NCBI RefSeq assembly: GCF_001677475.2
Contig: NZ_CP015229.1
Origin: Escherichia coli
GTDB lineage: Bacteria > Pseudomonadota > Gammaproteobacteria > Enterobacterales > Enterobacteriaceae
DNA length: 64,000 nt
Strand: one strand, 5' to 3'
Part shown: piece by piece, positions 34,822 to 35,075 of the stretch
How the letters are laid out: every line of letters starts with the position of its first letter
Numbering within the stretch: position 1 is the stretch's first letter
Notes under the pieces: model-generated
Database searches by the model: none
What the model saw: the letters and a program-made list of their open reading frames with translations, nothing else
What the model was told of the DNA's origin: nothing
Translations under genes and position numbers: made by a program

Positions 34822-34897
34822 GGCCCTTTAGCTCAGTGGTGAGAGCGAGCGGCTCATAACCGCCAGGTCGCTGGTTCAAATCCAGCATGGGCCACCA
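34822..34897 (+). tRNA. tRNA with CAU anticodon (Ile2/Met-type; ileZ-like)
   Basis: Hand-folded cloverleaf: D-arm TAGCTCAGTGGTGAGAGC, anticodon loop CTCATAA, T-arm GGTTCAAATCC, 3' ACCA. Confidence 0.7.
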
Positions 34898-34904
34898 TAA
34901 CATA

Positions 34905-34985
34905 CCGCCATTAGCTCATCAGGAAGAGCAGACGACACGATAACAGGGTTGTTGGTGCGGGGTTCGAGTCCTCGATGGCGGTCCA
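34905..34985 (+). tRNA. tRNA-like sequence with atypical anticodon/variable region (possibly degenerate)
   Basis: Perfect 7-bp acceptor stem (CCGCCAT/ATGGCGG), D-arm TAGCTCATCAGG, T-arm GGTTCGAGTCC and CCA, but the anticodon arm does not fold canonically by eye. Confidence 0.4.
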
Positions 34986-34998
34986 TTATCTGCATCAT

Positions 34999-35075
34999 GC
35001 GTTGTTAGCTCAGTCGGACAGAGCAATTGCCTTCTAAGCAATCGGTCACTGGTTCGAATCCAGTACAACGCGCCA
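34999..35075 (+). tRNA. tRNA-Arg (anticodon UCU; argO-like)
   Basis: Acceptor GCGTTGT/ACAACGC, D-arm TAGCTCAGTCGG, anticodon stem-loop ATTGC-CTTCTAA-GCAAT, T-arm GGTTCGAATCC, 3' CCA. Confidence 0.8.

Follow-up and report, generated by a model that had tools for sequence, protein, structure and literature searches.

A tRNA-like element lacking an anticodon stem-loop in the tRNA operon of an Escherichia coli prophage

The tRNA cluster and its prophage surroundings

The window, a stretch of 64,000 nucleotides of Escherichia coli DNA, carries a small tRNA cluster within the gene order DUF968-RusA-Q-small ORF-AraC HTH-tRNAs-terminator-TerB, as established from open reading frames (ORFs), Pfam matches and a terminator scan. 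The Q antiterminator gene lies at 32836-33531 (Pfam 1e-87), and the gene immediately 5′ of the cluster encodes an AraC-type helix-turn-helix regulator of 237 aa (34082-34795, plus strand; Pfam HTH_18 5.6e-10, HTH_AraC 4.8e-9). The equivalent gene at the matching position of E. coli prophages is annotated as ‘helix-turn-helix domain-containing protein’. A consensus scan found a promoter-like site, TTGATT-16 nt-TATTAT, at 34785-34812 on the plus strand with 9 of 12 matches. This site ends 10 nt 5′ of the first tRNA and its position matches that of the feature ‘pT; putative tRNA promoter’ in phage 933W, so a promoter function can be inferred from the consensus match. On the other side of the cluster, the terminator scan detected a hairpin of 7 pairs, 6 of them G-C, followed by a T run (GGCTCGC-TTTT-GCGGGCC; 35089-35116, plus strand, with the hairpin itself at 35089-35106), and its counterpart in 933W, located upstream of stx, carries the annotation of a possible rho-independent terminator. 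From the consensus matches and the 933W annotation, the cluster is probably an operon with its own promoter and terminator.

The cargo site is occupied by a TerB-family gene (35249-35674, plus strand; ORF, Pfam TerB 6.4e-7). At this position after the tRNA cluster, 933W, phiP27 and an Stx2k phage carry stx2, and prophages of O157 and O145 carry TerB/DUF3927. Downstream of the cluster in the window are TerB, DUF3927, a match to the small RNA STnc100, DUF1737 and the lysis genes, and we read the ORF at 38442-38975 as a putative lysozyme gene. The cluster is thereby located 3′ of Q and 5′ of the cargo and lysis genes, as in the late-region tRNA operons of lambdoid and Stx phages, with consensus matches at the promoter and terminator positions.

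Several other features of the region were noted. Three matches at the Rfam gathering level were found on the two strands: STnc100 between DUF3927 and DUF1737 (93.7 bits, 35877-36052, plus), the sok antitoxin RNA (110.6 bits, 30652-30826, plus) and DicF (77 bits, 22456-22507, minus). The position of STnc100 corresponds to that of the prophage anti-sRNAs, which Tree et al. 2014 (PMC4104026) placed downstream of cargo genes. The DUF1737-containing ORF (36679-37029 and downstream) is 116 aa long here, whereas its counterparts at the O145 and O157 loci reach ~616 aa. It forms the N-terminus of a SASA/NanS-p type esterase gene in related prophages, and this gene appears to be truncated or disrupted in the window. 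Positions 1-17800 are chromosomal (mfd and its neighbours), and this mfd is at most 98.5% identical to that of any complete E. coli genome.

Two tRNA genes are called by ARAGORN in the whole window, namely a tRNA(cat) at 34822-34897 and a tRNA-Arg(tct) at 34999-35075, both on the plus strand. The Rfam tRNA model RF00005 scores them at 68.1 and 71.7 bits, respectively, in agreement with the initial annotation that the first and third genes of the cluster fold canonically. The homologues of the first gene are ileZ in 933W, with the note ‘codon recognized: AUA’, and tRNA-Ile in the annotation by PGAP; it is a tRNA-Ile2 that reads AUA after lysidine modification of its CAU anticodon. The second is of the argO type, reads AGA and AGG, and is annotated as argO in both 933W and phiP27. 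Compared with six homologues, the ileZ of the window has two mutually compensating changes in its anticodon stem (GCGAC...ATCGC to GCGGC...ACCGC), in which an A-T pair became a G-C pair, and it contains a T-T mismatch at acceptor pair 6-67. The codons ATA, AGA and AGG are rare in the first ~17.8 kb of the window and more used in the prophage ORFs from ~17.9 kb, a contrast that fits phage-borne Ile2 and Arg(UCU) tRNAs.

Between these two genes lies an 81-nt tRNA-like element without an anticodon stem-loop (34905-34985, plus strand; identified from sequence and fold), which we refer to as class B. The initial annotation had recognized three tRNA-like genes 3′ of the AraC gene in the ileZ-argN-argO arrangement of Stx phages, and this arrangement holds: the cluster is collinear with that of 933W, at 89% identity. 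The tRNA operon itself is well known from Stx phages. Its odd middle gene is also already known and is a common, ordinary one, as it is present in phiP27, which was sequenced ~25 years ago, and is flagged ‘tRNA-OTHER’ by PGAP.

Scaffold and central segment of the middle element

The middle element reads CCGCCAT-TA-GCTC-ATCAGGAA-GAGC-AGACGACACGATAACAGGGTTGTTGGTG-CGGGG-TTCGAGT-CCTCG-ATGGCGG-T-CCA. Three of its arms are those of a canonical tRNA. The acceptor stem CCGCCAT/ATGGCGG forms 7 of 7 pairs and is followed by T as the discriminator and by an encoded CCA. The D arm consists of a 4-bp stem, GCTC/GAGC, and the loop ATCAGGAA, which contains GG, and the T arm has a 5-bp stem, CGGGG/CCTCG, closing the 7-nt loop TTCGAGT. 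All three are present in the minimum-free-energy fold as well, so that the earlier statement that the middle gene keeps its acceptor, D- and T-arms is borne out in both sequence and fold.

The remaining 28 nt (34930-34957, plus strand) were defined by alignment to the 933W argN as a class-B-specific core, AGACGACACGATAACAGGGTTGTTGGTG, which takes the place of the anticodon arm and the variable loop. No 5-bp stem closing a 7-nt loop could be formed in this segment, and neither a U33 nor an anticodon could be placed. Parsing the element again by eye as a tRNA with a shifted 5-bp/7-nt arm or with a long variable arm was also unsuccessful, because no register gave 5 pairs together with U33. Consistent with this, ARAGORN made no call at 34905-34985, and RF00005 did not match the middle element in scans of the whole 64-kb window or of a 341-nt region, either at the gathering threshold or at E ≤ 10. 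When 34900-34990 was scanned alone, however, RF00005 aligned over its full length with 33.3 bits (E 5.6e-6; gathering score 29). The missing match in the larger scans is therefore a filter effect, since the isolated 91 nt do score 33.3 bits. As a more general observation, negative cmscan results on large windows can hide weak tRNA-like elements, as the speed filters did with 34900-34990.

Two alternative pairings compete within the arm. The RF00005 alignment forms a 5-bp stem, GACGA/UUGUU, with a 13-nt loop and a 4-nt variable loop, corresponding to the pairing GACGAC/GUUGUU. The minimum-free-energy optimum is instead CGAUAAC-AGG-GUUGUUG, a 9-bp hairpin with the 3-nt loop AGG. Both registers are available because the 3′ strand consists entirely of G and U and so can pair with either AGACGACA or CGATAACA. 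Against shuffled sequence, neither pairing stands out in stability (z -1.2 to -1.5). The view that the anticodon and variable region cannot be folded thus stands, given that ARAGORN calls nothing and that RF00005 needs a 13-nt loop to accommodate it.

The RF00005 alignment raises the question of whether the element could still decode, as a tRNA whose anticodon loop is unusually large at 11-13 nt. The full-length score of 33.3 bits, the GACGA/UUGUU stem, the normal spacing of this stem to the D and T arms and the 4-nt variable loop would agree with such a tRNA. However, the context of U33, anticodon and a purine at 37 cannot be placed in this loop, ARAGORN makes no call, PGAP assigns no isotype, and the minimum-free-energy fold prefers the competing CGAUAAC-AGG-GUUGUUG hairpin. 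The natural decoder tRNAs known to have expanded loops have 8-9 nt, not 11-13. We regard a large-loop decoder as very improbable. With no 7-nt loop, U33 or anticodon to read a codon, the middle element is, judging from its sequence, almost certainly unable to decode. ArgRS and LysRS both rely on anticodon nucleotides, as established by work on tRNA identity, and the absence of the anticodon loop means that these determinants are missing from the element.

Relatives of the element and the source of its arm

Among phage records, 289 match the 341-nt region, most of them from Stx2 phages, and its identity to phiP27 is 96%. Compared with the ileZ-argN-argO cluster of 933W (AF125520), the window has the same order, spacers, promoter position and downstream terminator, with 89% identity over 312 nt, and in both the cluster lies between Q and the cargo site. 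The two differ in their cargo, which is stxAB in 933W and TerB/DUF3927 in the window, in the AraC-type gene upstream of the window cluster and in the UCG arm of argN, which the window does not have. The middle element occupies the argN slot between ileZ and argO and shares the argN scaffold: the acceptor stem, the 5′ part of the D arm, the T arm and both spacers are identical in the alignment. In contrast, the stretch that runs from the 3′ part of the D loop through the variable loop is replaced, with a length difference of 4-5 nt, and the argN anticodon arm CCAGC-CTTCGAA-GCTGG (UCG) is absent from the middle element, which has AGACGACACGATAACAGGGTTGTTGGTG instead. The alignment to the 933W argN, which the initial annotation had proposed as a check, thus corrects the picture in one respect; the scaffold is common to both, but the gene is not simply a decayed argN, because its arm and variable loop have been swapped.

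The element is also found in the Stx2e phage phiP27 (NC_003356), where the ileZ-argO interval holds an unannotated 81-nt copy that differs by one base. This base is in the T stem (CCTGG), which is fully paired in the window copy. In E. coli CFIAFB20180540, OkiPb01716 and ETEC1703, elements of 81-82 nt are annotated ‘tRNA-OTHER’ by PGAP with the same boundaries as the window element, from CCGCCAT to CCA; the annotated variants are the phiP27-type of 81 nt and that of OkiPb01716 with 82 nt. Their flanks differ from the window in that a DNA methyltransferase gene is upstream in phiP27 and ETEC1703 and stx2e is downstream in phiP27, ETEC1703 and CFIAFB20180540. PGAP calls tRNAs via tRNAscan-SE, and the label ‘tRNA-OTHER’ would denote a tRNA-like call to which no anticodon can be assigned, hence not the normal tRNA that would have spoken against the initial annotation. 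The element is not discussed in Tree et al. 2014 (PMC4104026) or in the Pas sRNA preprint.

Three further explanations were rejected. A sequencing artefact is ruled out by the presence of the element in phiP27 and in more than 1200 E. coli genomes, with identical sequence in many independent ones, a remnant of an att site by the intactness of both tRNA halves and both flanks, and an intron by the extra length of only 4-5 nt.

To see what occupies the slot elsewhere, we scanned IMG/VR with the 3′ end of ileZ and the 5′ end of argO as the only anchors. The 120 loci returned hold 58 distinct middle elements, which fall into two classes. One of them, class A, comprises argN (anticodon TCG) in numerous sub-variants, several of them visibly decayed. 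Class B has the window-type core and makes up about a quarter of the loci. The same scaffold also carries other arms: Arg UCG in 933W, ‘Pseudo-TTG’ in the Yersinia phage YeP3 and, with a loop of 5 nt, ‘Ser tga’ in L239 and L244. A Lys(UUU) arm of the E. coli type, with the loop CCTTTAA, is present in PPompW_EH1992, phage Evi, L101, 08-00022 and STEC309. A second, Lys-like type, GAGC-CG-ATAAC-CATTTAA-GTTGT-AGGTG, is found at the IMG/VR loci L238 and L240-L243, and it has variants in YeP3 (loop CATTGCC, ‘tRNA-Pseudo-TTG’) and in L239 and L244 (5-nt loop CTGAG).

Class B reads GAGC-AGACGACA-CG-ATAAC-AGG-GTTGT-TGGTG and matches the arm of this second type at 7 of 7 positions in CG-ATAAC and at 9 of 10 in GTTGT-NGGTG. 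The tRNAs of the Yersinia phages YeP1-3 and of L238 and L240-L243 are like the window element in their acceptor, D and T scaffold, in the CG-ATAAC...GTTGT-NGGTG arm and in the variable loop. They differ in having a 7-nt loop, CATTTAA (CATTGCC in YeP3), where the window has AGG together with the 8-nt AGACGACA after the D stem, and in their cluster partners, which are Met and Gly rather than the Ile and Arg of the window. The alignment of the Lys-type tRNA with the phiP27 element covers both over their full length, and a 5′ flank of the Lys type, including its 1-nt spacer and C7, is still present in the class-B copy of OkiPb01716. As for the inserted 8 nt, AGACGACA and CGATAACA are identical at 5 of 8 positions and differ at two further positions by transitions, so the 5′ stem strand may have been duplicated in tandem to give the insertion. 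The middle element is a mosaic of a degenerate Lys-type arm in argN-type flanks, which fits recombination among paralogous prophage tRNA genes. A local donor for the core was searched for with blastn-short in the window and 230 loci, and only chance matches of 8-15 nt were found. A scan of species-representative genomes for ATAAC-N1-9-GTTGTNGGTGCGGGG gave three matches, of which the two inspected were chance occurrences in unrelated sequence and the third was in Pedobacter.

These comparisons bear on another account of the element, implied by the earlier proposal to align it to argN, namely that it is the tRNA-Arg(UCG) gene argN itself, decayed by point mutation. Its position between ileZ and argO, the identity of its acceptor, T arm and spacers to the 933W argN, and the fact that many class-A argN copies are decaying too would all be expected from such a history. 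On the other hand, the arm and variable loop share only scattered identities with argN and are off in length by 4-5 nt, the arm follows the Lys-type ATAAC/GTTGT-NGGTG pattern at 7 of 7 and 9 of 10 positions, and none of the 58 middle-element variants has an arm intermediate between argN and class B. We consider descent from argN by point mutation distinctly unlikely.

The Lys-type tRNAs on this scaffold showed peculiarities of their own. U33 is near-universal in tRNAs. In the Lys(UUU)-type tRNAs of the scaffold, the U33 position is C (CCTTTAA) or A (CATTTAA), as seen in L234 (1502-1577), L236 (1502-1578), L240 (1579-1655) and L235 (1503-1580), and some of these U33-less tRNAs are annotated as pseudo or OTHER. 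The loss of U33 could reflect decay or evasion of anticodon nucleases. The Lys-type tRNAs of L248 and L249 (1192-1268 in each) are one base apart; ARAGORN calls both, and that of STEC309 is annotated in RefSeq and that of 08-00022 is left blank. RefSeq annotation of borderline prophage tRNAs is inconsistent.

Spread, decay and possible roles of the element

Class B is abundant. Of 5426 complete E. coli genomes, at least 1231 contain its 41-nt core, 1227 of them at ≥99% identity and mostly without annotation, and at least 751 contain the core of the 933W argN. By these counts, class B is no rarer than the argN core of the 933W type.

Most copies are not as well preserved as that of the window. 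In a sample of 141 class-B copies, representing 19 variants, the T loop is aberrant (GCGGGT or CCGGGT) in 125 and the T arm is canonical in the remaining 16. In the copies with an aberrant T arm, the G run varies in length from 4 to 13, indicating slippage. The commonest variant, with its decayed T loop, is not matched by RF00005 even when scanned alone and is left unannotated by PGAP. Changes in the class-B stems comprise 6 distinct pair-breaking changes, all one-sided, and 9 unpaired cells, with no compensatory change, in contrast to the neighbouring ileZ of the window with its compensatory change in the anticodon stem. Covariation counts over the 19 class-B variants equal those of shuffles, at low diversity. 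Likewise, per-column diversity of ileZ, the middle element, argO and the spacers is low and does not separate selection from recent common ancestry. Decay is also seen in many class-A argN copies (L044, L020, L090 and others), which have acceptor mismatches (GATGGCAATCC), the T loops CTCGGGT or CCCGGGT, and mismatches in the anticodon stem. In general, the constraint on the middle slot seems to be weaker than that on ileZ and argO.

Taking the scaffold and the relatives together, we favour the interpretation that the middle element is a co-transcribed, probably processed, non-decoding tRNA relic, and we consider this likely. It is homologous to the Arg- and Lys-type tRNA scaffold, its loop is down to AGG, and the aberrant T loops, G-run slippage and one-sided stem changes of related copies point to relaxed constraint. 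The earlier suspicion that the middle gene may be degenerate is supported by the absent anticodon arm on an intact scaffold and by the ARAGORN check, which gave no call.

A relic of this kind could have arisen and be expressed as follows. The locus is a tRNA operon of lambdoid Stx-type prophages, placed between the Q antiterminator and the late-region cargo site. Its outer genes supply tRNA-Ile2(CAU) for AUA and tRNA-Arg(UCU) for AGA and AGG, going by the codons annotated for the 933W homologues. The scaffold of the middle element should be recognisable to RNase P and the 3′ processing enzymes, and an RNA of ~81 nt ending in CCA would probably be cut out. Within the phage tRNA scaffold family, the ancestor was probably a member of the Lys(UUU) type rather than argN(UCG). 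In its descendant the loop would have shrunk from 7 to 3 nt and ~8 nt would have been gained 3′ of the D stem, where the 5′ stem strand may have been duplicated in tandem. Recombination between prophages would then have brought this core into argN-type flanks and disseminated it widely in the species.

One observation counts against a relic. In the window copy all scaffold pairs and the encoded CCA are in place, which is more order than is expected of an old pseudogene. This intact scaffold could be explained by recombination with functional argN alleles. The invariance and frequency of the core fit either recent spread or selection, and the diversity is too low to separate the two.

The same order invites the opposite explanation, that the element is a functional, non-decoding tRNA-like RNA that acts via its scaffold, either as an uncleavable competitor or decoy for a nuclease or through another regulatory role of the enlarged loop. 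In addition to the perfect scaffold and CCA of the window copy, the core does not vary among more than 1200 genomes and recurs in no fewer than four flanking contexts, and the slot elsewhere holds Lys(UUU), with Thr(UGU) also present in a variant cluster, both of them tRNAs hit by AriB and Old. However, ~89% of the sampled copies have a destroyed T loop, G-run slippage and uncompensated mismatches, and the decayed copies are not tRNA-like to the covariance model. Moreover, the arm does not exceed shuffled sequence in stability, covariation is no higher than in shuffles, and no complementary target was found in the window. In the last of these searches, made as for an sRNA-like target, the complement of the middle-element loop gave nothing beyond chance in the window. 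From the sequence comparisons, we regard a functional RNA of this kind as unlikely, though less so than a decayed argN.

The anti-defence context is given by recent work in which Lys(UUU) and Thr(UGU) tRNAs are attacked by PARIS AriB and P2 Old and are replaced by phage tRNAs (PMC12409363, PMC12445682). Competitive inhibition of AriB by some viral tRNAs has also been suggested as a possibility (PMC12409363), and changes in the anticodon loop have been proposed as an escape of phage tRNAs from nucleases (PMC10264068). In E. coli 08-00022 and STEC309 (L248 and L249, 1115-1424 in each), the cluster reads Ile(CAU)-Lys(UUU)-Thr(UGU)-Gly(UCC) where the window type has Ile-X-Arg, and it sits at the prophage position equivalent to that of the window, after an AraC-type gene and before TerB. 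By analogy, this suggests that the sister Ile-Lys-Thr-Gly cluster may hold anti-defence tRNAs too. The middle element of the window resembles the known rescue tRNAs, T5 tRNA-Lys against PARIS and phage 21 tRNA-Thr against P2 Old, in being phage-borne and of lambdoid or coliphage origin and in occupying a slot or cluster that carries Lys(UUU) and Thr(UGU) in sister prophages. It differs in that a rescue tRNA needs the anticodon of its host target; neither ARAGORN nor RF00005 allowed an anticodon to be assigned to the element, and without one it would be unable to rescue decoding. The Lys(UUU) and Thr(UGU) of the sister allele and the idea of AriB competition (PMC12409363) make a decoy role conceivable, if improbable, and the evidence leans against it.

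A more specific version holds that the element is a selected mimic derived from tRNA-Lys, expressed from the tRNA operon, that occupies or inhibits a tRNA-targeting defence nuclease or a tRNA-modifying enzyme instead of substituting for a cleaved tRNA. The invariant 28-nt arm would then be functional, and the decay of the T loop elsewhere would be loss of function in cryptic prophages. We give this version little credence, about as little as descent from argN. A possible analogue of a stable, non-decoding RNA is provided by the tRNA cluster of phage T4, whose species 1 and 2 RNAs are small and stable, have tRNA-like ends, do not decode and are processed from the cluster. To our knowledge, no function has been assigned to them; they have no sequence relationship to the window element, and the likeness is one of analogy only.

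In summary, we favour a non-decoding relic of Lys-type ancestry in a well-known operon, and what is added here to that operon is this ancestry, the high prevalence of the element and the interchangeability of arms in the tRNA slot. Counts of tRNA genes in E. coli prophages depend on the tool, as the element is called, left unassigned or skipped according to the program and the filters used. The ‘argN slot’ is a scaffold rather than one gene and carries Arg(UCG), Lys(UUU) or another non-canonical or dead arm depending on the prophage. Such interchangeable arms bear on ideas of codon supply and of tRNA-cleaving defence as explanations for prophage tRNAs. If the element were a selected tRNA mimic, a novel type of phage counter-defence would be encoded in roughly one quarter of E. 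coli genomes.
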